Below are positions 1-31,185 of a DNA stretch of 64,000 nucleotides, one piece after another (the stretch's first letter is position 1; each line of letters opens with the position of its first letter). Both the position numbers and the translations under genes were made by a program. The notes under the pieces were generated by a model. It was not told where the DNA came from. It worked only from the letters and a program-made list of their open reading frames with translations, and ran no database searches. The stretch is from assembly GCA_052168235.1 (NCBI GenBank), contig JBQLZK010000035.1, forward strand, positions 11,696 to 75,695, given 5' to 3'. This DNA is from Thainema sp. Lineage in GTDB: Bacteria; Cyanobacteriota; Cyanobacteriia; Phormidesmidales; Phormidesmidaceae.

Positions 1-1063
1 CATAAGTGTGGTTGCTGGTTGGCGTTAACTTGCCGATGTAGGGCAGTTTATCAAAGGAAATATAGTCCTGAGTTGACCAGAAGTATTCAGGCGTTACGCC
101 GTAGTACTGCTGCATATCCTGGGCCAGCTTCTGGTAACACTCGTCTGTACTGCTGACTTCACCGACCTTATGGCCTTCACCCCCCATGAGGAGCAGCGTA
201 CCGCCATCCTCCAGCGGCGTCGTGCGCAGCGAACGGTAGCTTTGGCCCGTGCCGATAAACATGCCGCCCGGATCTTGATCGGGATTGATGCGGCCACCGA
301 TGATGTAAGACCGTTTGGGATAGGTTTTGGCAAAGAACAAGCCCTGATCCAAGATCGGCAAATTCGTGGTCACGATGACATCTTGCGCAACTACAGTTGG
401 CCCGTTTTTGGTGATGACGCGACAGGGTTCTTCGCCTTTAACGGTGCAAACGCGGGTATTTTGGAAGACATGGCTACCGTTACCGGGAATCTTGGCCGCC
501 AGATTGAGAATGAATTTGCGGGGATGGAACTGAGCCTGATTGCTAAACTTTACGGCTCCAACCACATCAAACGGTAAAGAAGGCACGTCTTTCACAAAAC
601 TGGCTGGCAAGCCCAGCTTTTGAGCTGCTGTTACTTCTGCTTCGATTTTGTTGAGCTGATCGGTTGAACGAGCATAGGTAAAAGTGTCTTTGCGCACAAA
701 ATCGCAGTCGATTTGCTCATCCTGCACAAAGGCGGCTAGTCGATCAATTCCAGCCTGATTTGATTCTGCATAAAGGCGAGCTTTTTCTTCGCCAATGCTG
801 TCAACTAACTGGGCGTAGATAAGCTGATGTAGTGAGGTGACTTTCGCTGTGGTATGACCCGAAACTCCAGCGGCGATTTGGTTGGCTTCTAGTAACGCAA
901 CGGTTTTACCCGCTTGCTTCAGCAATTTAGCGGTTGTGACTCCGACTAAACCAGCCCCAACAATGGCCACATCGACTGAGATATTTTCAGTGAGTGTGGG
1001 ATAAGTAGTATCAAGAGTAGATGTAATCCAATAGGATGGATGAACTTCAGGTAGTTGAGTCAT
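1..1063 (-). CDS. FAD-dependent oxidoreductase (DAO/PuuB/YhfW-like), runs off the window edge
   Basis: Not in the ORF track. Manual translation from the ATG at 1063 gives MTQLPEVHPSYWI...VDVAIVGAGLVGVTTA...LLEANQIAAGVSGHTTAKVT, a Rossmann GxGxxG motif typical of this family. Confidence 0.85.
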   Translation of the reverse strand, partial: MTQLPEVHPSYWITSTLDTTYPTLTENISVDVAIVGAGLVGVTTAKLLKQAGKTVALLEANQIAAGVSGHTTAKVTSLHQLIYAQLVDSIGEEKARLYAESNQAGIDRLAAFVQDEQIDCDFVRKDTFTYARSTDQLNKIEAEVTAAQKLGLPASFVKDVPSLPFDVVGAVKFSNQAQFHPRKFILNLAAKIPGNGSHVFQNTRVCTVKGEEPCRVITKNGPTVVAQDVIVTTNLPILDQGLFFAKTYPKRSYIIGGRINPDQDPGGMFIGTGQSYRSLRTTPLEDGGTLLLMGGEGHKVGEVSSTDECYQKLAQDMQQYYGVTPEYFWSTQDYISFDKLPYIGKLTPTSNHTY

Positions 1064-1201
1064 GATGATACAGCGATTTCATAAATTTATAAGAACAATG
1101 CATCTATCTAATGCAATGAGCGCTGTAATCCTCATCCGTCTATAGTTTGAGCACTTATATAGAAGGTGAAAATCTCAGTCTATTGGACTAGCGGGTTCGC
1201 T

Positions 1202-1301
1202 TATAGTCGTTGTCATTTGGATTAGGATGTTGCGTGTTTCAACGTTTAAACGTTCGAACGTTCTCAACGTTGAAACGTTGGACTACTTGGCTGCTGCTAT
1301 A
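1202..1301. mobile_element. Degenerate MITE-like repeat with AACGTT tandem core (copy 1)
   Basis: TATAGT...GCTATA termini and five AACGTT units; similar copies at 4750 and 26325. Confidence 0.55.
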
Positions 1302-1339
1302 CAATAGAACTTCACGATACATATAATTTGCTGGTCATT

Positions 1340-1549
1340 ATGGCTCGCTTAATTCTTACCGCTGTATTTGCCGTTGGGGTGGCTGCGATCGCAATTATCG
1401 CCGCTCAAAACGGTACGCCAGTTTCGGTTAACTTTCTGTTTTTTCAATCTGTAGCGATTCCGTTTGGCGTCACGCTAGCTTTCTATGCGGCGGCAGGGCT
1501 GATTGGGACAACGCTGTTTCTGTACCTGTGGGAGTTGGCAGGGCGATAA
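1340..1549 (+). CDS. LapA/DUF1049-family small membrane protein
   Basis: Two hydrophobic helices around AQNGTPVSVNFLFFQS; ATG at 1340 preferred over the TTG at 1328. Confidence 0.75.
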   Translation: MARLILTAVFAVGVAAIAIIAAQNGTPVSVNFLFFQSVAIPFGVTLAFYAAAGLIGTTLFLYLWELAGR

Positions 1550-1567
1550 CGTTTTATTCTGAAGTCT

Positions 1568-1611
1568 AGAAGAGGCTTATTGCCGCAGTGCTGCGGCAAT
1601 AAGCCTCTTCT
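1568..1611. terminator. Perfect 21-bp hairpin between convergent genes
   Basis: AGAAGAGGCTTATTGCCGCAG-TG-CTGCGGCAATAAGCCTCTTCT. Confidence 0.7.
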
Positions 1612-1615
1612 CAAT

Positions 1616-2311
1616 TTATTGTCGTCGATAATCGCCGAGCCAGTCAGACTGGGGCTTGAGTAGGGTTGGCAGCAGTTTAAAGAATGAGACGGCGGGGTTT
1701 TGGCGTTTAGCGATTTGCTTCTGTCGCCAAGCGCGTTCCTTGAGCCGAATCCAAACATCTTCCGGTGTGGCTTGATCCTGTACGACCAAGTTCAAGTCGG
1801 AAATGAGCTGCGATCGCAACTGCATGTGCATTTCAATTAGCTGCGTTGGGGCGGCGCTGGGACGAGAGAGCCACGGCTGATGATCGAGCTGGATTTGCGG
1901 CGTGATTAGGGTTGGCCGTTCGGTGGTGGTGAGAATCAGCCAGTCATCGTTGAGCAAACTGAGAATGGTGCAGGTCGGAGTGTGGCTGGTGTTCTCGCTG
2001 GGTAGCGCTTGCGCCAGTAACACCCAGTACTGTTGCTCAGGATGCTGGAGCAGTCGCACAAAGGTCGGCATAAACTCGCCAACGGTGGCGCTTAGCTGAC
2101 CGTCCATGCGGTAAACACAGCCTAAATCTTGAAACTCCTGACTGTAGGGGATGAGGCGATCTAGATTCAGCAGCGGCACATCATTTGGAGAGTGGATTGG
2201 CTCGACTTCTAGCCCAGCCGGAACCGCCTGCATGGTCTTCTGCCAGCGCATGATGGCCAGTAAAACCAGAACTGCGATCGCAACTAGCCCATAAATCAAC
2301 CATCGATCCAT
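1616..2311 (-). CDS. Hypothetical protein with N-terminal membrane anchor
   Basis: 231-aa ORF with an N-terminal TM segment, 12 bp downstream of the kinase gene. Confidence 0.75.
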   Translation of the reverse strand: MDRWLIYGLVAIAVLVLLAIMRWQKTMQAVPAGLEVEPIHSPNDVPLLNLDRLIPYSQEFQDLGCVYRMDGQLSATVGEFMPTFVRLLQHPEQQYWVLLAQALPSENTSHTPTCTILSLLNDDWLILTTTERPTLITPQIQLDHQPWLSRPSAAPTQLIEMHMQLRSQLISDLNLVVQDQATPEDVWIRLKERAWRQKQIAKRQNPAVSFFKLLPTLLKPQSDWLGDYRRQ

Positions 2312-2323
2312 GATGCACCCATC

Positions 2324-4558
2324 CTACTTATCCACTTCGACCCGCAGTTTATAGTCAAATGCATCATCTGAGCGCGACACCACCACAATTTCATAGACGC
2401 CGCTTTGGGATAAATCGCCTGACCAATCGTAGTCGTCGCTATCTTCCTGTAAGGGGTCAGCTTCTTCTAGGCGGGGCGGATAGATCGACAGCAACGCCTC
2501 GTCATCGGGAGCATCCAGCCGCACCTTCAGGTCTTGCTCGTCCGACAGTTCTACTGTATAAACCTTGCCTTCTCCCGGTCGTAACTCTCGCTCAACTGTG
2601 CGGTCGTCTTTGTCATCCAGCTTGATGTCTTCCAAGGCATCCCCATCGCGAAAACCGCGCAGCCGATCAAAGGCCATCCCGTGCCACACTTGACCCATTG
2701 GCGTGTCGAGCAGTGCTCCATTCGCCAGTTCATCGGCAAAGTCTGGAAAGCGTTCTTTAAACGCCGCATCGGTTAAATCGTAGAGGGCGCGACCGCTGAC
2801 ATTATGATCGGTTCTCGCCTCGGCTTCCCACTGGTCGCGATCGCTACTGTCATAGCTGCCTAAACTCTGCCGCGCTTCACTGCTGAGTGCATCGTCGATC
2901 TGCTTCAGCGCATCAGTCGCCGTGTCGTCCCAACGCTTGCGCCAAACCTCATCGGCGGCAGAACTGGTTAGCTGCACCCCTTCTTTTTCCGGATACTGTC
3001 TGAAAAAGAGCTGATTGGTGATCGTGTTCAGGATGCCTTCACTCACTTCTAATTGCTCGCGTCGCTGGCGTAGTTCCGCTTTGCGGGCCCGTTCCGCTGG
3101 AGAATAGGTCGGCTCATTGGTCTCCGGTTCCGCACTGGGGCTAGGTGTAGGTTGATCCGGCGGATCTGAACTAACCGCAACAGGCGGCGTAAACAGGCTA
3201 GATGTCGGTTCCCAGGCCGTCACCAACCACCACACCAGCCAAATTGACCAGGCTGTCCCAGTCAGCAGCAGGACAAATAAGATGACCTGCCCAATTGCCC
3301 GACTAGAGGGTGCGATCCGTCGCTGAGGTCGCGATCTCAAACCGGAGTTGGGTGCGATCGCAGCCAGTGATCCCCCTGATGAATAAACCACAGAATGGAG
3401 CGGATCGGCCTGAGAGCGAGACTTGGATTTTGCCTTTGGTTTGCGGGGCTTCGCTTTCACTGCGGCTTGTCGCACCTGACGGGGCGCACGTGGACTCACC
3501 GCGACGGTTGCCTGTCCAGTCATCGAGGAAGAGGTCGCCGGAGCCGGAGCCGGCACAGGTAGGGGTGGAATTGAACGGGCGGGGGACTCAACTCCATTGG
3601 CGGTTGCTGGCCAGCCTAAGGCCTGCATGACGTTCATTGCCGACGAATAGCGATCGCTGGGCCGAAAGGCTAGCATTCGATCCAGCACCTGACTCAGACG
3701 AGGACTGACCTGTACCAGTCGTCGCCAGTGCCAGGTCACCGTATGCGGATCGTATAGGCTCAGCGGTTCCTGTCCAGTCAGCAGCACCAGGGCTGTCACG
3801 GCCAGCGCATACAAATCGGAAGATGGCGTCACTTCCCCAGACTGCATTTGCTCATCGGGCGCATAGCCAGCTTTCCCGAGGCGGGTAGGAGCAGCAGCAT
3901 GAGCGTGCGATCGCAACTGCTGTTCTACTTGGGCAGCAATTTGCTTGACGCCACCAAAGTCAATCAGGACAGGCAAATTGTCTGTATCTCGCAGAATCAA
4001 GTTATCCGGCGCGATGTCCCGATGAATCACCCGTAGATTGTGCAGATACTGCAACACGGGCAGCAACTGGCGGAACAGATCAAGAATTTCATCTTCGGTA
4101 AACGTCCGCTTTTCGCGCTGGCGCTGCTGCAAAATTTCGCGATAGGTAGAGCCTGGAATGTAGTCCTGAACGAGATACAGCGTGGCCTCTTGGTCTTGCC
4201 CGACCCGCAGCAGTTCACGAAATCGGGGAATCTGATCGTGCTGAAGCTGATACAAGACCCCCGCTTCCCGCTGAAACAGTTCCTCTGCTTTGCGCAGCGC
4301 GTCAGCGTCATGAACCAGCGGCACAAACTCTTTCAGAACGCATTTTTCTTCAAACCGATTAAGGTCTTCGGCCAAATAGGTGCGGCCAAAACCGCCCTGC
4401 CCCAACAAGTGCAGCACTCGATACCGCATGCCCAAAATAGTCTGAGCCGAAGGATCAGAGCCAGTCGCTGGCTCCGTCAGGGCTTCCCCACAAAAGCGGC
4501 AAAAGCGGCTACCCGATGGGTTTTCATGGTATTGGGAGCAGTAGAGAGGATCGGTCAT
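2324..4558 (-). CDS. Membrane Hanks-type Ser/Thr protein kinase (N-terminal Zn ribbon, TM, extracytoplasmic PPC-like C-terminus)
   Basis: LGQGGFGRTY, VLKEF, IHRDIAPDN and LIDFG motifs; N-terminal C..H...CRFC; TM segment in the middle of the protein. Confidence 0.93.
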   Translation of the reverse strand: MTDPLYCSQYHENPSGSRFCRFCGEALTEPATGSDPSAQTILGMRYRVLHLLGQGGFGRTYLAEDLNRFEEKCVLKEFVPLVHDADALRKAEELFQREAGVLYQLQHDQIPRFRELLRVGQDQEATLYLVQDYIPGSTYREILQQRQREKRTFTEDEILDLFRQLLPVLQYLHNLRVIHRDIAPDNLILRDTDNLPVLIDFGGVKQIAAQVEQQLRSHAHAAAPTRLGKAGYAPDEQMQSGEVTPSSDLYALAVTALVLLTGQEPLSLYDPHTVTWHWRRLVQVSPRLSQVLDRMLAFRPSDRYSSAMNVMQALGWPATANGVESPARSIPPLPVPAPAPATSSSMTGQATVAVSPRAPRQVRQAAVKAKPRKPKAKSKSRSQADPLHSVVYSSGGSLAAIAPNSGLRSRPQRRIAPSSRAIGQVILFVLLLTGTAWSIWLVWWLVTAWEPTSSLFTPPVAVSSDPPDQPTPSPSAEPETNEPTYSPAERARKAELRQRREQLEVSEGILNTITNQLFFRQYPEKEGVQLTSSAADEVWRKRWDDTATDALKQIDDALSSEARQSLGSYDSSDRDQWEAEARTDHNVSGRALYDLTDAAFKERFPDFADELANGALLDTPMGQVWHGMAFDRLRGFRDGDALEDIKLDDKDDRTVERELRPGEGKVYTVELSDEQDLKVRLDAPDDEALLSIYPPRLEEADPLQEDSDDYDWSGDLSQSGVYEIVVVSRSDDAFDYKLRVEVDK

Positions 4559-19879: not shown

Positions 19880-20722
19880 TCAGTCAGGAATTGCTAGGGC
19901 CAGTTGATAAATTTGGCGGCGGGATAGGGAGGTGCGCTGGGCCAATTGACGACTAGCTTGCGATCGCGATAATCCCTGCTGAATTAAATCCTGAAGTTCC
20001 GCTTTCAGGGCTGACTCGGATAACAGCGGTTCCGACTGGGTCGTGCCTTGGATGATGACGGTGTATTCGCCTTGGGGCTGCTGCTGTTCGACGTGATCGA
20101 GGGCGGATTGGAGAGAGCCGCGCCAAAATTCTTCGTGCAGTTTGGTCAGCTCCCGCGCCAGGGTGATCGGTCGATCTGCGTCCAGGGTTTCAGCCAGATC
20201 CGTCAGCGTTTGCTTGAGTCGATGGGGGGATTCGTAGAGAACAATCGTGCGCGATTCAACTGCGATCGCATCTAGCCGATCTCGCCGCTCCTGACCTTTA
20301 GCGGGCAAAAATCCTTCAAATACAAATCGATCCGTGGGCAATCCGCAAGCGCTGAGTCCGGTGATCACAGCGCTCACACCGGGAATTGGCACAACGCTGA
20401 GATTGGCTTCCACACAGGCTTTCACCAGGTCGTATCCTGGATCAGAAATGCCAGGCATTCCGGCATCAGTGACCAGTGCGATCGCAGCTCCCTGCTGAAT
20501 CCGATCCACTAATTCCGGTGTGCGGCTGGCGCGGTTGTGGTCGTGGTAGCTAATCTGGGGCGTGGTGACTTGAAAATGCTGCAAGAGCTTGCCCGTGTGC
20601 CGCGTATCCTCGGCGGCAATCACATCCACCTGCTGCAACACCTGAATCGCCCGAAAGGTCATATCTTCCAGGTTGCCAATCGGTGTACCAACGATATAAA
20701 GCGTGCTCGACTGAACTTCCAT
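19880..20722 (-). CDS. rsmI: 16S rRNA C1402 2'-O-methyltransferase
   Basis: LYIVGTPIGNLED, AEDTR, DAGMPGISDPG, YESPHR and RELTKLHEE motifs. Confidence 0.97.
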   Translation of the reverse strand: MEVQSSTLYIVGTPIGNLEDMTFRAIQVLQQVDVIAAEDTRHTGKLLQHFQVTTPQISYHDHNRASRTPELVDRIQQGAAIALVTDAGMPGISDPGYDLVKACVEANLSVVPIPGVSAVITGLSACGLPTDRFVFEGFLPAKGQERRDRLDAIAVESRTIVLYESPHRLKQTLTDLAETLDADRPITLARELTKLHEEFWRGSLQSALDHVEQQQPQGEYTVIIQGTTQSEPLLSESALKAELQDLIQQGLSRSQASRQLAQRTSLSRRQIYQLALAIPD

Positions 20723-21500
20723 GACTAATCCACTGATAACCCTACTGACTGACTTTGGCCTGCAAGACCCCTACGTCGGCGTGATGAAAGGCGTGATCGC
20801 TCAGATCAATCCCGCCCTGCGCACCATCGACCTCACCCACGACATTCCGCCCCAGAATATTACCCTAGCGCGATTTGCCCTGATGTCGGCCTATGCGTAT
20901 TTTCCGGATGGAACCGTGCATGTCGTCGTGGTTGATCCGGGCGTGGGCGGGACTCGTCGGGCCGTGGCCGTGCAGTTTGAACGGGGATACTGGGTTGCCC
21001 CCGATAATGGTGTGCTGAGCGGGGTGTTGGATCAAGAAACTGCGATCGCAGCTGTAGAACTGACCAATCCCCAATACTGGCGCGATGCTAATCCCAGTTC
21101 AACTTTTCATGGCCGCGACATTTTTGCCCCCGTTGCAGCGTACTTAGCCAGTGGAGTTGCGATCTCGGAACTGGGACAAGCAATTGATCCGCAGACGCTG
21201 ATTCGGCTGGAGGGCATGGATTACTCAACCACTGATGACGGGATAACGGGCTGCATTCAGTCGATTGATCGGTTCGGCAACTTAATCACGACGATTCCCG
21301 GTTCAGCGGTGATGGGGCGAGAGTGGACGTTGGCGATTCGAGACCATACCATTCAAAGCCACCAAACCTATGGAGAAGTCCAGCCAGGAGAGGTTCTGGC
21401 GCTGATTGGCAGTCATGGCTGGGTCGAAATCGCTGTTAACGGCGGCAATGCTCAAGCCCTGCTGAATGCTTCACTAGGCGATGCTGTACAGATACCGTGA
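20721..21500 (+). CDS. SAM hydroxide adenosyltransferase / SAM-dependent halogenase family (DUF62)
   Basis: TLLTDFG, VVDPGVG, PDNG, STFHGRDIF and IDRFGN motifs. Confidence 0.93.
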   Translation: MTNPLITLLTDFGLQDPYVGVMKGVIAQINPALRTIDLTHDIPPQNITLARFALMSAYAYFPDGTVHVVVVDPGVGGTRRAVAVQFERGYWVAPDNGVLSGVLDQETAIAAVELTNPQYWRDANPSSTFHGRDIFAPVAAYLASGVAISELGQAIDPQTLIRLEGMDYSTTDDGITGCIQSIDRFGNLITTIPGSAVMGREWTLAIRDHTIQSHQTYGEVQPGEVLALIGSHGWVEIAVNGGNAQALLNASLGDAVQIP

Positions 21501-21859
21501 TCCCTGGCACCTGATACATTGAAATCGATCACTTCAAGAATTGATAGCAGTCAATCATTCGATTGATTTCGATCAATGATTACAGCTATTGTCATCACTC
21601 TTAAACTCAACTTAAATCACTCGCTTTAAGTGACCAAATTTACAGATTACTTCTACCTGCATCACCCCTAAAGAGCAGGCGATAGGAGATATTAAATGAA
21701 GATTATTTGAAACGCTTTTGTGAACTAAGACGAAGCTAATCGTTTTGGGTTCAACAACTAAGCCAAAGTTCCTTTCAATTGCCCTGAAATAATTTTGGCA
21801 CAGCGCTCAAATTATCGTTACGTAGCAATTACGTAAACCATTTGCCCCCTATGGAGATT

Positions 21860-22192
21860 ATGACAATGAAACGCCTTTTCGTTAGCTTTTCTACAATTGC
21901 GATCGCAACTGCAGCTATTGCCCCCGCTGCTTTTGCAGGTGAACTCTCGACTCAAACCAAATTAAACGAACGGTTTGAACAAGAGCGGCTTCAAACACTG
22001 AACAGCTTGACTGATCGATTTGAGGCTGAGCGAGAAGACACCTTAAATAAGGGTTTGAACGACCGCTTTAAGCAAGAACGACTGCAAACATTAAACAGCT
22101 TAACGGATCGCTTTGAGCAAGAGCGGCTCGAAACCTTAAACGGACTCGCCGATCGATTTGAGGATGCCCGTGATGAAAATTTGGACAGCTAA
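21860..22192 (+). CDS. Secreted small protein with five 15-16-aa tandem repeats
   Basis: Signal peptide MKRLFVSFSTIAIATAAIAPAAFA, then repeats LxDRFExERxxTLN; GGAG before the ATGs at 21860/21866. Confidence 0.8.
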   Translation: MTMKRLFVSFSTIAIATAAIAPAAFAGELSTQTKLNERFEQERLQTLNSLTDRFEAEREDTLNKGLNDRFKQERLQTLNSLTDRFEQERLETLNGLADRFEDARDENLDS

Positions 22193-22420
22193 ACTAAACA
22201 GCTAATTCCATTTGTTTTTTCATCGTGTCTAGTTCAATTTGTGCTGTAGAGAACCTAAGAGATGAATGAAATGTAGGATAAGCATTGCTTGTCCTACATT
22301 TTTCTTGTCATGATACAAGCAGGAATTTCCTGTATTCTCAGCACTCAAAAAGCAAGGCGAGAAGCGAGAGGATCCAAGAAATTCTATTTCCTTCCGCACT
22401 AGCATCCATCCCATCTGCAC

Positions 22421-22981
22421 ATGAATCAACCGCAAAAATGGCAAATTCTTCGTTCTCATTGGGCACTCGATCATCCCTGGTGTCGAGTACGGCAGGATGT
22501 GGTGGCGCTGCCCAACGGTCGGGTTGTGGATGATTACTTTGTGCATGTTCGTAAAGATGTAGCGCTTGTGCTGCCAATCACATCTCAGCACGAAGTCGTC
22601 ATGGTGCGCCAATATCGCCACGGCATTCAAGATATCCTGCTCGAACTGCCAGCTGGCACGTTTGATCCGACACAGGAACAGCCTCAGGTTGCAGCCCAGC
22701 GCGAACTACAGGAAGAGACGGGATACGGAGCCGAAACACTAATTCCCCTATCGGTTTTGTATGACAATCCAGTCAAAGATACCAACCGAATTCATCTCTT
22801 TCTGGCCCAAAACGCCAAACCAATCACAGATCAGCAACTTGATGAAACCGAAGATATTGAAATTGTTCTCGTGCCGCTCAGTGAAGTCATGACCCACGTT
22901 GTGCAAGGAGGAATCCGGGTTGCGGGAACGGTTTCTGCTCTCTTTTTAGGTTTGGAGTGGTTTCGATCGCACTCTTCCTAA
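22421..22981 (+). CDS. NUDIX hydrolase (ADP-ribose pyrophosphatase-like)
   Basis: RQYRH..ELPAG...AAQRELQEETG Nudix box. Confidence 0.93.
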   Translation: MNQPQKWQILRSHWALDHPWCRVRQDVVALPNGRVVDDYFVHVRKDVALVLPITSQHEVVMVRQYRHGIQDILLELPAGTFDPTQEQPQVAAQRELQEETGYGAETLIPLSVLYDNPVKDTNRIHLFLAQNAKPITDQQLDETEDIEIVLVPLSEVMTHVVQGGIRVAGTVSALFLGLEWFRSHSS

Positions 22982-23183
22982 CGTTAGTTCGGGATAATTG
23001 GCAACAAACATAGCATTTTGATCCCGTTCCTGGAGGGATGCCCGGAGGGCGGGGTGGGTTGAATTTGCAACTGCAACATACTGACGATTGACGTCTGTTA
23101 TACCAAATCACGCCTGAGCGTGCAGTCAATCCGGTAGGATAAAAAATGGACAAAATTTGCAATTGACTGCATCGTTTCTCTGA

Positions 23184-23729
23184 TTGATGTCTCCTATGAG
23201 CCGAACAGTTGGGTTTTCCGTTCAACAGAAGTCGCTGCGATCGCGACTCCTTAGCAGACTAAAGCAAGCTGTAGCGCTGCTAGCCATTGTGGTATTGACC
23301 TTGGGTTTAGCCCTCCCTGCCCATGCTGAAGACTTTGATAAGCGCGATTTAATCAAAGCAGATTTATCCAACCGCGACTTTACGGATTCCAGCTTTACCA
23401 AGGCCAACCTGCGGGAAAGCAACCTGAGCAACACCAATTTCATGGGCGTTAGCCTGTTCGGAGCGCATTTTGAACTGGCGAATCTGGAAGGAGCTAACCT
23501 GAGCTTCGCCACCCTCGACACAGCCAATTTTACTAAAGCCAACCTAACGAACGCCATCCTCGAAGGAGCCTACGCATTCAATGCGCAGTTTGATGGCGCA
23601 ATTGTTGATGGCGCAGACTTTACCGATACATTTCTGCGTCAAGATGCCATCAATTTGCTCTGTAAAACCGCTAAAGGCACCAACCCAGTCACCGGACGTA
23701 ATACCCGCGACACTCTGTATTGTCCTTAA
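23184..23729 (+). CDS. Exported (lumenal-type) pentapeptide-repeat protein
   Basis: Signal ending PAHA, pentapeptide repeats, C-terminal LC..A.GTNPVTG..TRDTL.C. Confidence 0.88.
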   Translation: MMSPMSRTVGFSVQQKSLRSRLLSRLKQAVALLAIVVLTLGLALPAHAEDFDKRDLIKADLSNRDFTDSSFTKANLRESNLSNTNFMGVSLFGAHFELANLEGANLSFATLDTANFTKANLTNAILEGAYAFNAQFDGAIVDGADFTDTFLRQDAINLLCKTAKGTNPVTGRNTRDTLYCP

Positions 23730-23789
23730 AGACAATAATGATTGGAGAACCATGCAGACTGTATTGGCATGGCTTGCTCCAAATCACTT

Positions 23790-24137
23790 ATGAAGTACGT
23801 TTACGGTGTTCTATGTGTGCTGGGCAGCGTGTTGCCCTACTGGCAATTTATCCCGTGGCTACTCACACATGGCCTCGATATTCCGTTGCTGATTCAGGAA
23901 GCGTCACAGCTTCGCATCAGTGCCTTTGCTTGGCTAGATGTCCTGGTTTCAGCCATTGTCCTCCTTAGCTTTATTGGCTACGAAGGCCGCCGTTTGGGCA
24001 TGAAAACATTGTGGTTACCAATTTTAAGCACTGCGGTAGTCGGCGTTTCCTTGGGCCTACCGTTGTTTTTGCTGATGCGAGAACAGCATCTTGAACAACA
24101 GCAGCAACAGGCCGAAATAGCTGACATCGGTTCGTAG
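23790..24137 (+). CDS. DUF2834-like membrane protein
   Basis: LPYWQF, FAWLDV and VGVSLGLPLFLLMRE motifs. Confidence 0.75.
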   Translation: MKYVYGVLCVLGSVLPYWQFIPWLLTHGLDIPLLIQEASQLRISAFAWLDVLVSAIVLLSFIGYEGRRLGMKTLWLPILSTAVVGVSLGLPLFLLMREQHLEQQQQQAEIADIGS

Positions 24138-24310
24138 AGTCTTGAGGCTCTTTCTATCGGCTGATCGCGAGCGATGAAACTCAACAGCAAACCGCCCGCA
24201 GCCGCTCAATTTTTCAAAATTATTGTCAGAAATTGTTCAAAAAAATTGTCGGGTTTAGCCTATTCATCTGTGCAGATTGACCGAAACCCTTGACATTGGG
24301 TGCTTTCCCA

Positions 24311-24335
24311 ATACCCGACTAATTTAGTCGGGTAT
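24311..24335. promoter_or_regulatory. Rrf2 (IscR type-1-like) operator upstream of the thrC-like/moaD-like operon
   Basis: Palindrome ATACCCGACTA-ATT-TAGTCGGGTAT fits ATASYYGACTRwwwYAGTCRRSTAT at every position; TTGACA at 24290-24295. Confidence 0.75.
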
Positions 24336-24448
24336 GTTTGCGACAATTTTGCACCCCGTGATACGCTTTGTGAACGTTGGGTAAAGGACGTTCTAAAACC
24401 CTCATCCAACTTGCGATAGAGACGTTGTTGAATTGAAGCGAAGAAATC

Positions 24449-25765
24449 ATGACTCAGCTAAGCGATACCCTTCCCACCCAGTCCACTCAAACTCGGAAGC
24501 CCACGTTTACGGCCCTGCGCTGTAAAGAGTGCGGCGCTGAGTATGAACCTAAAGCGACCAATGTTTGCGAGTTCTGCTTTGGCCCACTGGAAGTCACCTA
24601 CGACTACGATGAGATTCGCCGCCGCGTGACTCGTGAATCCATTGAGCGAGGCCCAAATTCCATCTGGCGCTATAAAGACCTGCTGCCCGTTGCCACTGAC
24701 GACCCCATTGATGTCGGCACGGGGATGACGCCGCTGATCAAAGCGAATCGGTTGGCGCGTCGCCTAGGTCTCAAAGAGCTTTACATCAAGAATGACGCGG
24801 TTAACATGCCGACCCTCAGCTTCAAGGATCGGGTGGTCTCGGTAGCATTGACCCGCGCTCGTGAACTAGGGTTTTCCACGGTATCCTGCGCCAGTACGGG
24901 TAACTTGGCCAATTCCACAGCTGCGATCGCAGCTCATGCGGGGTTAGACTGCTGCGTCTTTATCCCCTCTGATTTGGAAGCGGGCAAGGTACTGGGTACG
25001 CTGATTTACAACCCCACGCTGATGGCGGTTAAGGGCAACTACGACCAGGTCAATCGCCTCTGCTCTGAAGTTGCCAACACCCACGGCTGGGGCTTCGTCA
25101 ACATCAACCTACGTCCCTACTACTCCGAAGGTTCCAAGACCCTCGGGTACGAAGTGATTGAGCAGCTCGGCTGGAAACTGCCCGACCACATCGTTGCGCC
25201 GCTGGCCTCTGGCTCTCTGTTCGGCAAGATCTACAAAGGCTTTAACGAATTCACCCAACTCGGTCTGGTGGAAGGCAAGCCTGTCCGCTTCAGCGGTGCC
25301 CAAGCTGAAGGCTGTTCCCCCATTGCGCAAGCCTTCAAGGAAGGCCGCGACTTCATCACCCCAGTGAAGCCCAACACAATCGCTAAGTCGATTGCGATCG
25401 GTAATCCGGCAGACGGCGTTTACGCGGTCGATATCGCGAACAAGACCAACGGCAACATTGAGTCCGTCACCGATGCTGAAATCGTTGAGGGTATGAAGCT
25501 GCTGGCCGAGACGGAAGGCATCTTCACCGAAACCGCTGGTGGTACGACAATCGCCGTACTTAAGAAGCTGGTTGAAGCTGGCAAGATTGATCCGGACGAA
25601 ACCACCGTTGCCTATATCACAGGTAACGGTCTCAAGACCCAGGAAGCGGTTCAAGGCTACGTGGGCGAGCCACTGACCATCGAGCCCAAGCTGGAAAGCT
25701 TTGAGCACGCCCTAGAGCGGGCACGCACCTTGGATCGCCTGGAGTGGCAGCAAACGTCTGTCTAA
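24449..25765 (+). CDS. Threonine synthase-like PLP enzyme (possible sulfur-carrier-dependent sulfhydrylase)
   Basis: Zn ribbon CKEC..CEFC, PLP lysine in PTLSFKDR, CASTGN and YYSEGSKT motifs. Confidence 0.9.
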   Translation: MTQLSDTLPTQSTQTRKPTFTALRCKECGAEYEPKATNVCEFCFGPLEVTYDYDEIRRRVTRESIERGPNSIWRYKDLLPVATDDPIDVGTGMTPLIKANRLARRLGLKELYIKNDAVNMPTLSFKDRVVSVALTRARELGFSTVSCASTGNLANSTAAIAAHAGLDCCVFIPSDLEAGKVLGTLIYNPTLMAVKGNYDQVNRLCSEVANTHGWGFVNINLRPYYSEGSKTLGYEVIEQLGWKLPDHIVAPLASGSLFGKIYKGFNEFTQLGLVEGKPVRFSGAQAEGCSPIAQAFKEGRDFITPVKPNTIAKSIAIGNPADGVYAVDIANKTNGNIESVTDAEIVEGMKLLAETEGIFTETAGGTTIAVLKKLVEAGKIDPDETTVAYITGNGLKTQEAVQGYVGEPLTIEPKLESFEHALERARTLDRLEWQQTSV

Positions 25766-25810
25766 TTTGTAAACCCTTGTAATTTGTATCTTCTACTCAT
25801 CTGGTAAACA

Positions 25811-26086
25811 ATGGCTGTCAAAGTTCTCATTCCAACCCCTCTGCAAAAGTTCACCAATAATCAAGCCACGATTGAGTGCGACGGCGGCAACATCTCTGAG
25901 CTGCTGGATGCGCTGAATCAGTCCTGCCCTGGCATCAAAGAGCGCCTGTGCAACGAAGAAGGTGAACTGCGTCGGTTCGTCAACTTCTACGTCAACAGCG
26001 AAGACATTCGCTTCCTAGACGGCAAAAATACAGCGCTGAACGAAGGTGATGAAGTCAGCATCGTACCAGCAGTTGCTGGGGGCTAA
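25811..26086 (+). CDS. MoaD/ThiS/CysO-family ubiquitin-like sulfur carrier
   Basis: 91 aa; [12 protein letters not shown] and C-terminal PAVAGG. Confidence 0.93.
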
Positions 26087-26110
26087 TATTAAGTCTGGTT
26101 GAAAACCCAT

Positions 26111-26163
26111 AATTTATTGTTTGTAAAACGTTTGCTCTGCAAACGTTTTACAAACAATAAATT
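26111..26163. terminator. Perfect 25-bp hairpin after the sulfur-carrier gene
   Basis: AATTTATTGTTTGTAAAACGTTTGC-TCT-GCAAACGTTTTACAAACAATAAATT. Confidence 0.6.
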
Positions 26164-26324
26164 GGGTTCTTATACACAGAGTTGATATAAATTCTCTAGA
26201 TTTTTAAGTTTCAATCGGGTGCATCTGTTTACAACATAGGCTACAACGTCTTTTTCGCATTGCTAAGGAGTTCTGATGGGTTATACCGTTGGAGCTCCTT
26301 TTTTTAGATGCGTTTATTTATATG

Positions 26325-26429
26325 TATAGCTGTAGCCACGTTGGTTAGGACGTTGGAAGACCCTGAAAACGTTCAAACGTTTAAACGTTAGATTTCGTAA
26401 ATGGCACAACCAAAGTGGTGATGGTTATA
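26325..26429. mobile_element. MITE-like repeat with AACGTT core (copy 3)
   Basis: TATAGCTGTAGCCACGTTGGTTAGGAC ... CAACCAAAGTGGTGATGGTTATA with three internal AAACGTT units. Confidence 0.6.
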
Positions 26430-26523
26430 TTCTCAACCTCAATCGTATAAGCACCCACAACTGTAGACAGACACCAGCAGCAAGATGCCCAACTACAGTT
26501 AAAGGGTATTCAACGGAATTTGC

Positions 26524-27366
26524 ATGACTTTCAATATTGTTGACGCTGACCACAAACTTAGTCAGCCATTTGTGTTCAACTGGATCAGCCTTGCGCTTTT
26601 TGCGGCAGTTCACACTCTCGCTTTACTCGCTCCCTGGTTTTTCTCTTGGTCAGCACTAGGAGTCGCCCTTTTCCTGCACTGGCTATTTGGCAGTATTGGC
26701 ATTTGTCTGGGATATCATCGGCTACTCACGCATCGCAGTTTGCGCCTTCCTAAGGGACTGGAATATGCGATCGCACTAGTGGGTGCTCTCGCATTACAAG
26801 GAGGGCCGATTTTCTGGGTTGCAGGGCATCGTCGGCACCACATGTACACTGAAGACATTGACAAAGATCCTTACTCTGCGAAACGAGGATTTTGGTGGAG
26901 TCACATGGGCTGGATGCTTTACGAGCGCCCAGAGTTTTTTGAGTACGAATCGAATCGCCAATTTGCACCCGATCTAGCCAAAGATGCCTTCTACCGTTGG
27001 CTCGATCGCTACTACATGCTGCTGCAAATCCCGCTCGGCGTTGGACTATACCTGCTTGGGGGATGGTCATTCGTGATCTATGGAATATTTGTAAGAGCCG
27101 TCTTACTCTGGCACAGCACGTGGTTGATCAACTCTGCAAGCCACATCACAGGCTATCGCAGCCACGACTCGGACGATAACTCTCGCAACCTCTGGTGGAC
27201 AGCAATTCTCACCTATGGAGAAGGCTGGCACAACAACCATCATGCCTATCCCAACGTGGCCAAAGCAGGCTGGAAATGGTGGGAAATCGATATGACTTGG
27301 TGGGTCATTGTGGGCTTAAAGCACCTGGGATTGGCGCAAAGAATTGTCTTACCGCCATCAGTTTGA
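26524..27366 (+). CDS. desC: Delta-9 acyl-lipid desaturase (DesC family)
   Basis: His boxes HRLLTH, HRRHH and GWHNNHH. Confidence 0.9.
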   Translation: MTFNIVDADHKLSQPFVFNWISLALFAAVHTLALLAPWFFSWSALGVALFLHWLFGSIGICLGYHRLLTHRSLRLPKGLEYAIALVGALALQGGPIFWVAGHRRHHMYTEDIDKDPYSAKRGFWWSHMGWMLYERPEFFEYESNRQFAPDLAKDAFYRWLDRYYMLLQIPLGVGLYLLGGWSFVIYGIFVRAVLLWHSTWLINSASHITGYRSHDSDDNSRNLWWTAILTYGEGWHNNHHAYPNVAKAGWKWWEIDMTWWVIVGLKHLGLAQRIVLPPSV

Positions 27367-27378
27367 TCACTACTCATA

Positions 27379-28520
27379 TCAAGTCTGTGTTCGCGGCAGA
27401 CGGACAGTAAACGTCGTACCTTCCTGCGCTGTCGAGGCAACCGTAATTGTGCCCCCGTGGGCAACAACGACCTCCCGCACAATATACAATCCCAGACCGA
27501 TACTGCTCGAAACTTTTTGCGATGCTGATTCCGAAGTAGCGTAGTGCATGAGCGGATCGAAGATCGTTGTCAGCATCTCCGACGGGAGCGGCGGCCCTTC
27601 ATTATGCACACTCAAGACCACGGTTGATTCTTCTGACGCGATCGCAAGTTCGATTGCCCCCTCGGTTGCCCCGTGCTGAAGGGCGTTGCCCAGCAGATTG
27701 GAGATCACCTGTCGCAGTCGGGCTGCATCCCAGTTGCCCATGAGGTCACCGTCTGGGTGAAAGCGCAGCGTGCGCTGCGGGTAGGCAAAGCAGAATTCTT
27801 CAAAGACGTTGCGACCCAGTTTTTCCAGATCGACCGGATTGCGCGTCAACGGCATCGCGCTACCCAGTCCCGTCGATGCGAAGTCGATCAGGTCATTAGT
27901 CAACCGGGTGATCGTCTGCGTATTCCTATCGATCATCGATAGTGCTTTGGCAGAGGGCGCATCTTTGTCTGTGATGCGCGCAGCCAGTTGTACAGCCACG
28001 CGGATGGTGTTCAGCGGGCTACGCAGGTCATGGCTGAGGATCGCCAGGAACATGCGGCGCGACTGCTCCACCTGTTTGGTGTAACTGCCAACAGCTTCAG
28101 CAAGGGATTGATCGATCGCCTCATTGAAGCGGGTGATGTCGTTGATATCGTTGATATCGGGCTGCGGGTGCTGGCCCGCCACAAACGGAGCACGCTGGCC
28201 CGCAGGGCACGATATTCAGCAACGACTTCTATGATGTCAAAGCCTGAGCCTACACGTTCCACACCATGCTGTTGCGAGGCGTAGTCGAGGTGATCGCTCT
28301 CCTCGCCGCCAGCACCGCCGTAGCCTTTAGACTTGCTGGCCTGCTGAGCGAGGTTCTGATCGCTCTGCATATCCCGCACGGCGGCCAGCAGGATTGGCTC
28401 AGCAGCATCACGCAGGGCAAGCTTGGTCATCTCCGCCCCAGGAGAGAGGCTACGCGCAAACGTTTCCCATTCTGCGAGGATGGGTTCAATATTCCCCAGA
28501 ATGAAGTCGGCCAGTCGCAT
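27379..28520 (-). pseudogene. Frameshifted sensor histidine kinase
   Basis: 5' ORF 28011-28520 (MRLADFIL.NIEPILAEWE, RsbRD-N-like) and 3' ORF 27379-28182 (SHDLRSPL, NALQHG, GLGLY) join by a 1-nt shift near 28166-28170. Confidence 0.82.
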
Positions 28521-28793
28521 CGGTTTCTCCGCTGAGTACGGATTACAAATAAGGGAAATGCTACCACGGGGAAACGTCTAGATTTTGACGAGGCTGCGAT
28601 TTAGACCCATTAAGTATTTTGCTCTACTCCCTCAACAGCGCTTTTTCTTCCAGAACGTGCGATCGCGCTTTTTCAGTCCTAAACAACCAAATCAAGTTCG
28701 TGAGGACGACAACGGCTTAGCCAAATCTCCAGGTTTCACCACCAGAACCGAATTTATAATCAACTTGGCTGCTGCAACTTGAGATAGAAACCG

Positions 28794-29075
28794 TTAAGGA
28801 AAGCGGATTTAATCAGGTGAAATCTTTGGGGTAGGGACACGGCAATGCCGTGTATTTGTTTAGCGCGACACTCTGCATAGATCCCCCTAAATCCCCCTTA
28901 AAAAGGGGGAACTTTGAGCCAGAGTTGGAATAGCCCCTTTTTTCTAAGCGCAGCCATGCCCGAAGGGCTATAGGGGGCGGCGACAGCGGGGGATCATACA
29001 GCTACGCTAAACAAGTACAATGCCGTGTCCCTACGGATAGAGCGATTGACAGGCTATTTGATTCGCACTCCTAAG
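28794..29075. mobile_element. Composite of nested miniature elements
   Basis: Outer element is homologous to 40451-40539. Inner insert 28852-29018 has TIRs GTATTTGTTTAGCG / CGCTAAACAAGTAC, flanked by duplicated AATGCCGT. Confidence 0.8.
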
Positions 29076-29119
29076 CGTTTGTAATCTCAGATTAAATGAT
29101 GAATTTGGAGAACCTGTTT

Positions 29120-29632
29120 ATGTTGAAAAAGCATTATCGAATTTTGACAGCGCTGTGCCTGAGCGTGCTGCTGCTGGTTACCGCTTGCGCCAAGCCAGAA
29201 TCCCGTTGGGATCAGGTGCAGCAAGAAACGAAGAATGAGCAAATTGCCGATACTGCCACGGCGGAACCGATTGCAGGCGGCCAGTTCAATAAGTTTTTCC
29301 CAGAAGCATCCGGTGAATACGACACGGTTTATACCCAGGAAAAGCAGGGGTTTGCAGAGGCCAAGCTGAAGCAAAATGGCGAAGATGTGGCCATGCTCTC
29401 TATCTCTGATACGGCCCTGAATCCAGATGCGGTCACCAAGTTTCAAAACAGCGATTTAGAAATTGCAGGCTATCCTGCGGCTGAAGTGGGCAACTCCACG
29501 GCGGTTCTAGTAAGCGATCGCATTCAGGTCAAAGTCCAGTCACGCGGCAGCTTATTCACAGCAGAAGACCGGGCATCATGGCTGGAACAGTTTAATTTGC
29601 AAGGATTAGAAGAACTCGCCTCGGCTTCCTAA
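29120..29632 (+). CDS. Putative lipoprotein of unknown function
   Basis: Lipobox LLLVTA-C; start at 29096, 29099 or 29120 uncertain. Confidence 0.78.
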   Translation: MLKKHYRILTALCLSVLLLVTACAKPESRWDQVQQETKNEQIADTATAEPIAGGQFNKFFPEASGEYDTVYTQEKQGFAEAKLKQNGEDVAMLSISDTALNPDAVTKFQNSDLEIAGYPAAEVGNSTAVLVSDRIQVKVQSRGSLFTAEDRASWLEQFNLQGLEELASAS

Positions 29633-29727
29633 GCGACCTTGACGCATTCTGATCGACTATCCGTTCTACTTCTTTATCTAATTTCCTTTTCCTTGTCTAC
29701 TTCCTTTTCTTTACTTAATTTCCACCT

Positions 29728-30615
29728 ATGAGCAAAACCATTTTTGAACTGGTTGATGACCTGCCAGAGCGCAATATCACTGTTTTGGCACTGAGATCGC
29801 TAGATACGATCATTCCCGGCAAGTGGGAGAACCTAACTGGATTCGAGAACACGATTAAGGTCGTGACAGGCGAAACCGATCAGGCTCTGATTCAGCAGAT
29901 TGGTGAGCGAGCCATTCGGTTATTCAACGACAAAAAGCAGGGCTATCAGCGGGCGCTGTGGCTGTATCAGACCATTGACAGCACAGGGCGGGCGCTAGGT
30001 ACGGCAGCGTTTGCGGGCAAGGTCGGTGAAAAAGTGAAACTGCTCAGCTTCCTAGATAAAATCACGCCCAAGCCAGAAAAAGCTCAGACGATTGACCTGG
30101 CGCTGAAGCTGGTGACAGAGATTGTCGCTTTCTGCCAGATCAACGGCATTCCCGGTGACAGCATTGGCGATTTCGTCAAATCCTTGGGTGACTACAGCGG
30201 CGAAAGCCTGATGCGGATGGCGGCGCTGGTCAGCTTTGACGGCTTGATTCCCCTTGGCCCTAACTTTATCTTGTCGGCTCAGAATACGCTGAGCCGTCTC
30301 AATCCCAAAGAGCTAAACGAGCATCCAGGTTTTAAGCAAATTCGGGAACTGATTCCGGGCAACAGTGCGGACAAGCAGCTCGGCTTCATCAACGAGAGCT
30401 TTGATTCGACCAAGGGCTGGATGGGCAAGTTTGTCCAGTCCAACAATCTCACGCCGCAAAAGATTGCCAGTAACTTACAAAACTTTGTCGAAGTATCCGA
30501 AGACAAATTAGACTATCTAGGAGCCTTCCTGGACATGTCAACCAATTACTATGAGCATACGGGGATTCAAACCCTGGCTCGTCGATTGATCGAACGGGCA
30601 GTTGCTGAAATCTAG
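29728..30615 (+). CDS. Hypothetical protein (predicted helical)
   Basis: 295-aa ORF in an operon-like position; no motif I recognise. Confidence 0.8.
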   Translation: MSKTIFELVDDLPERNITVLALRSLDTIIPGKWENLTGFENTIKVVTGETDQALIQQIGERAIRLFNDKKQGYQRALWLYQTIDSTGRALGTAAFAGKVGEKVKLLSFLDKITPKPEKAQTIDLALKLVTEIVAFCQINGIPGDSIGDFVKSLGDYSGESLMRMAALVSFDGLIPLGPNFILSAQNTLSRLNPKELNEHPGFKQIRELIPGNSADKQLGFINESFDSTKGWMGKFVQSNNLTPQKIASNLQNFVEVSEDKLDYLGAFLDMSTNYYEHTGIQTLARRLIERAVAEI

Positions 30616-30639
30616 ATGAAACGGTAGAAAGAGTAAGCA

Positions 30640-31185
30640 ATGGCAGAAGAAAACACTCCCAAGGATCCAAAGCAGTCGGCTGAAGCGAATGGCTCAGGCG
30701 GCGATGACTCTGCGAAAAAGCCTGCCGCTAAAGCCCCGGCAGCCGGAAACAAAAAGCCTGCGGCATCAGGCGATGGTAAACCTGCGGCTAAGAAAAAAGA
30801 GAAGCCGCCTGCGCCTGAGGATAAGCCCTTTCCCAATTTCATTACGGAAGAGTTTATGCCTGCTCTGTCTGAGGCTTTGAAGAAGGAAGGCTTGGACGAT
30901 ATTGACCTCGACTTTGAGCGCACTAAGCTGGAAGTCGTCGGTTCTGAGCAAAGCGGCTTTTTCTGGCAGGTGATTGGTCACTGGCAAGATGGACGCCGCC
31001 AGTTTAATGTGGCCTTCTTGAAAGAGGATATCAAGGGGCCAAAGCTGTTTGCCTATTCGGATTCGGGTTCCAAGCCGAGTACCCTGGAGCATTTCATGGG
31101 TGATGAGCGTAAGGTAACGCTGGATCTGATGGTGCACTATGTTCTACAGCGGCTCAATGCTCAGAAGTGGCTGGTGCGGAATTAG
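30640..31185 (+). CDS. ndhV: DUF2996 / NDH-1 accessory subunit NdhV
   Basis: Ala/Lys-rich N-terminus, then KEKPPAPEDKPF..FI...LE.FM.DERK.TLDL....LQRLN.QKWL. Confidence 0.75.
   Translation: MAEENTPKDPKQSAEANGSGGDDSAKKPAAKAPAAGNKKPAASGDGKPAAKKKEKPPAPEDKPFPNFITEEFMPALSEALKKEGLDDIDLDFERTKLEVVGSEQSGFFWQVIGHWQDGRRQFNVAFLKEDIKGPKLFAYSDSGSKPSTLEHFMGDERKVTLDLMVHYVLQRLNAQKWLVRN

Follow-up and report, generated by a model that had tools for sequence, protein, structure and literature searches.

A gene pair labelled threonine synthase and sulfur carrier in the cyanobacterium Thainema sp. is probably a homocysteine-forming metM–metO unit behind a conserved promoter dyad

The window analysed here is a stretch of 64,000 nucleotides from the cyanobacterium Thainema sp. 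(assembly GCA_052168235.1, contig JBQLZK010000035.1, positions 11,696 to 75,695 of the forward strand). It contains two adjacent genes, which encode a ThrC-like pyridoxal phosphate (PLP) enzyme and a small ubiquitin-fold protein ending in Gly-Gly (Table 1). Judged from sequence, the pair is very probably a metM–metO unit, the cyanobacterial counterpart of Streptomyces MetM/MetO, which would make homocysteine. What the genomes show directly is which genes are present, how the orthologues are distributed, that the two genes occur together and that the promoter is conserved. The assignment itself is not new: the system dates from 2024 and publications already mention homologues from cyanobacteria. 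The additional finding is a conserved promoter dyad that takes the place of the riboswitch in cyanobacteria. The label 'threonine synthase' hides a probable homocysteine step in most cyanobacteria, as 55 of the 82 MetM-bearing genomes sampled have no other candidate for it, and the dyad provides a concrete handle for finding the regulator of cyanobacterial methionine synthesis.

The metM-like open reading frame (ORF) is followed, after a gap of 45 nucleotides (25766–25810), by the metO-like ORF. The product of the first matches Pfam PALP with 251 bits and is a PLP enzyme of the tryptophan-synthase-β fold, with the PLP lysine (Lys126) within an SFKDR motif. Its N-terminus carries a four-cysteine ribbon (Cys25, Cys28, Cys40 and Cys43), which is matched by Pfam NinF at residues 24–48 (31.5 bits). 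The ORFs and the Pfam matches confirm the initial annotation, which had been made from the sequence alone and described a zinc-ribbon ThrC-like PLP enzyme followed 45 bp later by a MoaD/ThiS protein ending in GG; it had also noted the lack of moa and thi genes nearby, and none was found among the 12 neighbouring ORFs scanned (19880–31185). The top NCBIfam matches of the enzyme are all ThrC models, one of which (NF006050) is narrowly missed with 298.3 bits against a cut-off of 303, and no CysK/CysM-family model is present among the best 25 of the 40 NCBIfam matches listed. The best score of the enzyme to any solved ThrC is 197 bits, and it is 35% and 28% identical to two other ThrCs of the same genome, encoded on contigs C14 and C64, respectively. 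These two ThrCs served as comparators in an active-site alignment of 23 MetM-clade sequences (that of the window, ten cyanobacterial and 12 actinobacterial). Within the clade 136 columns are invariant, and at 19 of them both ThrCs agree on a different residue; examples are ASTGN-LA in the clade versus ASTGN-TS in the ThrCs, RPYYxEGS versus NPYRxEGQ and ASG versus GN(A/L). In ThrC, the motifs with clade-specific residues presumably lie along the phosphate and substrate site, and the replacements are compatible with an altered reaction specificity.

The metO-like protein terminates in ...PAVAGG, directly followed by the stop codon, and has the ThiS/MoaD fold (Pfam ThiS, 66 bits). It passes the NCBIfam model moaD_arch (53.6 bits, cut-off 49.5) and lies just below the cut-off of the NCBIfam model SAMP1 (57.3 bits, cut-off 60). 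Among solved structures it comes closest to 4n6e_B (71 bits) and to the carrier chain 3dwg_C (69.6 bits), which we take to be CysO-type carriers serving a thiosugar enzyme and CysM, respectively. Two further ThiS-fold genes are present in the genome, a MoaD-like gene on contig C21 and a ThiS gene beside thiE on contig C59, and the metO-like gene thus encodes a third, separate carrier.

The assembly to which the window belongs (7.54 Mb in 205 contigs, 99.99% complete) contains three ThrC-family genes above the cut-off, including the metM-like gene. An orthodox bacterial ThrC is encoded on C14, with 470, 463, 440 and 423 bits to the solved structures 2zsj, 6cgq, 1uim and 2d1f, respectively. The C64 protein (C64:553-1524; locus L003, ORF 424..1788, minus strand; 454 residues) is a plant-type ThrC, with 569 bits to the Arabidopsis chloroplast threonine synthase 1e5x and an N-terminal Cys-rich ribbon of its own. 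Threonine synthases of both the bacterial and the plant type are thus present in the genome, and threonine supply is independent of the metM-like enzyme, because the C14 and C64 proteins are far closer to the solved ThrCs. With two such ThrCs at hand and 19 clade-specific replacements, the metM-like enzyme does not present itself as the threonine source of the genome with a ThrC-like active site. Three ThrC-family matches also occur in several of the sampled cyanobacteria.

Between O-phosphohomoserine and homocysteine, the conventional enzymes were searched for in the same assembly. No PF01053 (MetB/C/Y/Z) enzyme was found, the partial matches reaching at most 39.5 bits; the search for MetA returned nothing; and a true MetX was not found, the best match scoring 118–122 bits against a cut-off of 500. 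This best match is a MetX-like alpha/beta hydrolase encoded at C2:252995-253906 (locus L015, ORF 1471..2487), which NCBIfam assigns with 499 bits to NF005757, a 'hypothetical protein' subfamily. ThrB (304 bits) and MetH (1552 bits) are present, and MetE was not found in the assembly. O-phosphohomoserine is thus made and homocysteine consumed, with no conventional enzyme found between them. Side by side and in the same orientation, contig C76 encodes a MoeZ-like protein of 390 residues with ThiF and rhodanese domains (NF005646, 815 bits; MoeZ model NF005902, 512 bits) and a JAMM protein of 169 residues (Prok-JAB, 95 bits) with an HSHP..D motif. The initial annotation had envisaged a second canonical thrC, the absence of metA, metX, metB and metY and the presence of MoeZ and JAMM partners; the genome agrees with it on all of these, the metM-like gene not being its only thrC.

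Relatives of the metM-like enzyme were found in at least 548 stretches of species-representative genomes. The best 80 of these are all cyanobacterial, with 81–99% identity, and every named database record among the relatives looked at labels the gene 'threonine synthase'. Outside the phylum, the nearest full-length clusters in a library of representatives at 50% identity are 49–64% identical, one of them from Micromonosporaceae. With a member of this cluster and then another actinobacterial relative as queries, 159 actinobacterial loci were gathered, the products of which are 49–62% identical to the metM-like enzyme. Rfam was run on 28 of these loci, and in 25 of them (20 of 20 and five of eight) the gene is directly preceded by a same-strand S-adenosylmethionine (SAM) riboswitch, RF00162. 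The 12 riboswitch-linked proteins that were compared are 51–60% identical to the metM-like enzyme. A quick IQ-TREE search on 87 sequences, with the two ThrCs of the genome as the outgroup, placed the 11 cyanobacterial and the 12 riboswitch-linked actinobacterial sequences in one group each, and the two groups share a common clade with a Shimodaira–Hasegawa-like approximate likelihood-ratio (SH-aLRT) support of 100; the tree lacks a broad sample of canonical ThrCs and therefore shows grouping only, not history. By both identities and tree, the closest relatives outside the phylum are of the MetM type and not ThrC.

The distribution of the pair was followed in a phyletic sample of 201 genomes of the phylum, of which 85 belong to the same class; these genomes are kin, and the counts are descriptive. 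Orthologues of the enzyme are found in 82 of the 85 same-class genomes (77–88% identity) and the carrier in the same 82 (62–82% identity), so that co-occurrence is complete. The three genomes with neither gene (G159, G169 and G193; one family, 1.7–2.7 Mb) have three PF01053 matches each, and among the 82 genomes with MetM, 55 lack a PF01053 match at E ≤ 1e-30. By coordinate comparison, enzyme and carrier gene adjoin each other in 78 of the 82 (all except G105, G119, G129 and G167), and the carrier is the downstream neighbour in 69 of the best 80 cyanobacterial loci; three of the remaining 11 loci have no room downstream, and the other eight are from Pseudanabaena-like or other cyanobacteria. 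Because the carrier adjoins so regularly in both samples, the pairing is not due to chance. A JAMM protein is present in 64 of the 82 genomes with the C76 protein as the query and in 66 with the family model at E ≤ 1e-8, and its presence varies within genera.

The same pattern bears on two other readings of the pair. In one, the small protein would be a SAMP-like ubiquitin-like modifier conjugated to targets, with the ThrC-like gene as an ordinary neighbour. The near miss of the SAMP1 model and the JAMM protease in the genome would fit such a role, but the strict linkage to one enzyme family across two phyla and the carrier-bearing genomes in which no JAMM gene was found (16 of 82) make it extremely improbable. 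In the other, the pair would make a different sulfur product, such as cysteine from O-phosphoserine, as CysM/CysO does, or a thio-amino acid destined for secondary metabolism. This would accord with 4n6e_B and the 3dwg carrier chain as the closest solved relatives of the carrier, yet the enzyme is of the ThrC family and not of the CysK/CysM family, and other homocysteine routes were not found in the genome, whereas cysteine-synthase-like PALP genes are present elsewhere in it. The pair is moreover near-universal and single-copy in the sampled cyanobacteria, which fits core rather than secondary metabolism. We consider a different sulfur product very unlikely.

The Streptomyces route of ThrC-like enzyme and carrier that the initial annotation invoked does exist. 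In Streptomyces albulus, MetM (A0A059WBP2) and MetO (A0A059W7F4), with MoeZ and Mec, form homocysteine from O-phosphohomoserine and the MetO thiocarboxylate (Hasebe et al. 2024, AEM 90:e01247-24, as cited in PMC12172450 and PMC13759103). GapMind 2026 (PMC13759103) lists Streptomyces MetO, Mec, MoeZ and MetM as experimentally supported in its main-text table and S1D text, and the latter adds that threonine synthase is a frequent misannotation of MetM. According to PMC12172450, cyanobacterial homologues were found by Hasebe 2024, S. albulus metM has a SAM riboswitch, the Microcystis 'ThrC' shares 51.6% identity with S. albulus MetM and the product of the adjoining gene 47.25% with MetO; Microcystis also has a canonical ThrC2, and Planktothrix a ThrC3. 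The same source reports that on addition of threonine to Microcystis methionine and SAM fall and that thrC rises 10.5-fold and the carrier gene 6.8-fold, and that added methionine undoes both the induction and the toxicity of threonine (PMC12172450). This suggests a methionine-starvation response of the metM–metO unit. No further paper on a carrier-dependent route to homocysteine in cyanobacteria came up in our literature searches.

Several observations weigh against a role of the pair in homocysteine formation. The metM-like protein passes the NCBIfam equivalog TIGR00260 (thrC) with 344 bits against a cut-off of 167. The Microcystis enzyme is reported to have threonine synthase activity on O-phosphohomoserine (Vmax 0.0176 µmol/mg/min, Km 4.4 µM) and threonine deaminase activity, giving alpha-ketobutyrate from threonine, and no homocysteine was identified with Na2S in an assay without carrier thiocarboxylate (PMC12172450, 2025). 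One or two PF01053 matches, in one case a fragment that contains a stop codon, are present in 27 of the 82 MetM-bearing genomes, and MetM/MetO is therefore often, but not always, the sole candidate route. Prok-JAB was not found at E ≤ 1e-8 in 16 of the 82, each of which is at least 99% complete. Three Streptomycetaceae loci, one of Streptomyces lycii and two of Kitasatospora (L257, L265 and L268), gave no riboswitch in an Rfam search of the 1.5 kb ahead of the gene, even at E ≤ 0.1; the other 25 of 25 loci tested carry RF00162. The same three loci also supply evidence in favour: in them the enzyme is 53–57% identical to that of the window and the adjoining downstream carrier 45–48%, in agreement with the published values for Microcystis and S. 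albulus. Finally, no riboswitch was found upstream of the pair in the window (Rfam, E ≤ 1, 23500–26600). Control by a SAM riboswitch is thus not seen in the window, where the conserved promoter dyad stands instead.

The authors of PMC12172450 conclude that the Microcystis protein is a threonine synthase/deaminase. Extended to the window, this would make the metM-like enzyme a bifunctional enzyme of that kind and the carrier functionally unrelated to it. The formation of threonine and alpha-ketobutyrate in vitro (PMC12172450) and the TIGR00260 match speak for such an assignment. Against it stand the two ThrCs of the genome that are much closer to characterized ones, the very low Vmax of the Microcystis enzyme (PMC12172450), a carrier that co-occurs in 82 of 82 genomes and adjoins in 78, the SAM control of the actinobacterial relatives and the reversal of the Microcystis gene induction by methionine (PMC12172450). 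On this evidence we regard a bifunctional threonine synthase/deaminase as quite unlikely and the metM–metO assignment as the better account. The suggestion of the initial annotation that the pair may supply the homocysteine-forming step of cyanobacterial methionine synthesis finds support in gene content, relatives and phyletic pattern.

The chemical steps of such a pathway are proposed by analogy with Streptomyces MetM/MetO and mycobacterial CysM/CysO. The Gly-Gly end of the carrier would be adenylated and then thiocarboxylated by the MoeZ-like E1–rhodanese protein encoded on C76. The ThrC-like PLP enzyme would eliminate phosphate from O-phosphohomoserine supplied by ThrB and would then add the thiocarboxylate sulfur at C-gamma, in place of the water that is added at C-beta in threonine synthesis. 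Release of homocysteine would take place from the thioester itself or through cleavage of an N-acyl adduct by the JAMM protease encoded beside MoeZ, and MetH would methylate homocysteine to methionine, while threonine would be made by the two other, orthodox ThrCs of the genome. The JAMM protease is probably not obligatory in cyanobacteria, because its genes are patchy among MetM-bearing genomes, which fits a carrier that is made with its GG end.

The arrangement can be compared with four known systems. With S. albulus MetM/MetO it shares a zinc-ribbon ThrC-like enzyme followed by a CysO-type GG carrier, with MoeZ and JAMM in the genome. It differs in having a promoter DNA dyad in place of a SAM riboswitch, in a carrier that ends exactly at GG, so that no C-terminal trimming is needed, and in the patchiness of JAMM among cyanobacteria. 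In the CysM/CysO logic of Mycobacterium tuberculosis, the carrier thiocarboxylate attacks a phospho-amino acid. The carrier type and the type of activating enzyme are the same as in this CysM/CysO/Mec/MoeZ system (solved complex 3dwg), whereas the enzyme of the window is of the ThrC family and not of the CysK/CysM family; its expected substrate is O-phosphohomoserine, so the reaction would be a γ-replacement and not the β-replacement of CysM/CysO. The canonical ThrCs (2zsj, 6cgq, 1uim, 2d1f and 1e5x) have in common with the metM-like enzyme the fold, the SFKDR motif, TIGR00260 and, in all likelihood, the substrate O-phosphohomoserine; the latter is set apart by its 197 bits to solved ThrCs, the extra zinc ribbon and the 19 clade-specific replacements. 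In Wolinella succinogenes HcyS/MetY, a ubiquitin-like carrier thiocarboxylate delivers the sulfur of homocysteine through an O-acetylhomoserine sulfhydrylase of the PF01053 family; the genome of the window differs in that no enzyme of this family was found in it.

With the 311-nucleotide upstream region as the query (nhmmer), conserved non-coding sequence was found upstream of the orthologues in distant cyanobacteria. Its core is a perfect 25-bp dyad, ATACCCGAC-TAATTTA-GTCGGGTAT. We examined 78 upstream regions, with that of the window counted and three loci (L057, L058 and L060) dropped because fewer than 200 nucleotides were available; the dyad of L057 was nonetheless found by an exact-hairpin scan. 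The pattern WWWCCCGA-N9-TCGGGWWW, with up to two mismatches, is present in 77 of the 78 regions, L109 being the one without it. In all 77 the dyad is followed by a promoter of the form TTGnnn-N16-18-TAnnnT, the −35 box of which begins exactly two nucleotides past the dyad in 76 and reads TTGACG 42 times and TTGACT 28 times. A TG stands ahead of the −10 box in 76 of the 77, and the cross-species consensus is TTGACg-N17/18-TGnTAnnaT. The promoter of the window, placed by the cross-species alignment, has an 18-nucleotide spacer with TG at 24359–24360; its hexamers are weaker than the consensus, and a simple promoter scan did not call it. Transcription of the unit would start from this conserved promoter, the −35 box of which the 25-bp dyad abuts, with the first nucleotide expected near 24374. 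Since the dyad is upstream of the promoter, it is DNA ahead of the transcript and not part of an RNA. A conserved RNA element had been considered and was rejected: the dyad precedes the inferred −35 and −10 boxes, and the variation of its inner base pair fits the RNA of neither strand.

Table 1. Positions of the gene pair and its upstream elements in the window.
Feature	Position	Strand	Description
metM-like gene	24449..25765	+	Zinc-ribbon ThrC-fold PLP enzyme, 438 residues; probable MetO-thiocarboxylate-dependent homocysteine synthase
metO-like gene	25811..26086	+	CysO-type ubiquitin-fold sulfur carrier, 91 residues, GG C-terminus
Dyad ATACCCGAC-N7-GTCGGGTAT, perfect, 25 bp	24311..24335	.	Putative operator
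Inferred sigma70-type promoter	24338..24367	+	−35 TTGCGA, 24338–24343; −10 TACGCT, 24362–24367

The dyad is single-copy in its own genome, with one exact site, upstream of metM. A regulon was not found there: a strict search gave nine matches where nine were expected and a loose search 98 against 91, with the reversed genome as the control. Of the 82 sampled genomes with MetM, 77 contain a 21-nucleotide version with up to one mismatch, usually once; the three same-class genomes that lack MetM do not contain it. Each of the zero-mismatch sites listed lies within about 140 nucleotides upstream of a MetM match, and no match was found in the 159 actinobacterial loci. This distribution suggests that the 25-bp dyad is probably the operator of a regulator, and perhaps of a methionine-responsive one. 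No conserved regulator gene was found nearby when the ORF clusters of 80 related loci, with flanks of up to 4 kb on each side of metM, were compared; apart from the carrier, none is shared by more than 16 loci. Literature searches on the half-site words of the dyad returned primer lists and unrelated papers only, and a search for cyanobacterial methionine regulators found nothing. Two genomes of one genus, G005 (C95:4155-4175) and G062 (C25:8693-8713), have an identical second dyad-like site, with one mismatch to the 21-nucleotide pattern, away from metM; in this genus the presumed regulator may act there too.

Taken jointly, the broader propositions are held more tentatively. That MetM/MetO is the only homocysteine route in most cyanobacteria, that control comes not from a riboswitch but from a methionine- or SAM-sensing transcription factor which binds the single-copy dyad WWWCCCGAC-N7-GTCGGGWWW at its fixed distance of two nucleotides from the −35 box, and that JAMM is dispensable with the carrier made ending in GG, all at once, seems possible to us at a little short of an even chance.

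The plus-strand gene at 20721–21500, some 3 kb upstream of metM, encodes a SAM hydroxide adenosyltransferase (Pfam SAM_HAT_N and SAM_HAT_C). It is probably unrelated to the pair, because every ORF cluster except the carrier is limited to at most 16 of the 80 related loci. In a metatranscriptome of three runs, one fifth of the sampled words were present, and the contigs match only about 30 nucleotides of a dispersed repeat that follows metO. This repeat is a long, near-perfect hairpin at 26094–26180, right after the metO stop codon, with a folding energy of −42.8 kcal/mol and a z-score of −11.2. The Rfam matches near the genes were set aside as chance miRNA-like matches and lie on this hairpin only. 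It has 112 local blastn matches in its own genome, many of them full-length at 86–93% identity, and as a dispersed palindromic repeat it is therefore an element like a miniature inverted-repeat transposable element (MITE) or a repetitive extragenic palindrome (REP) rather than a dedicated terminator.

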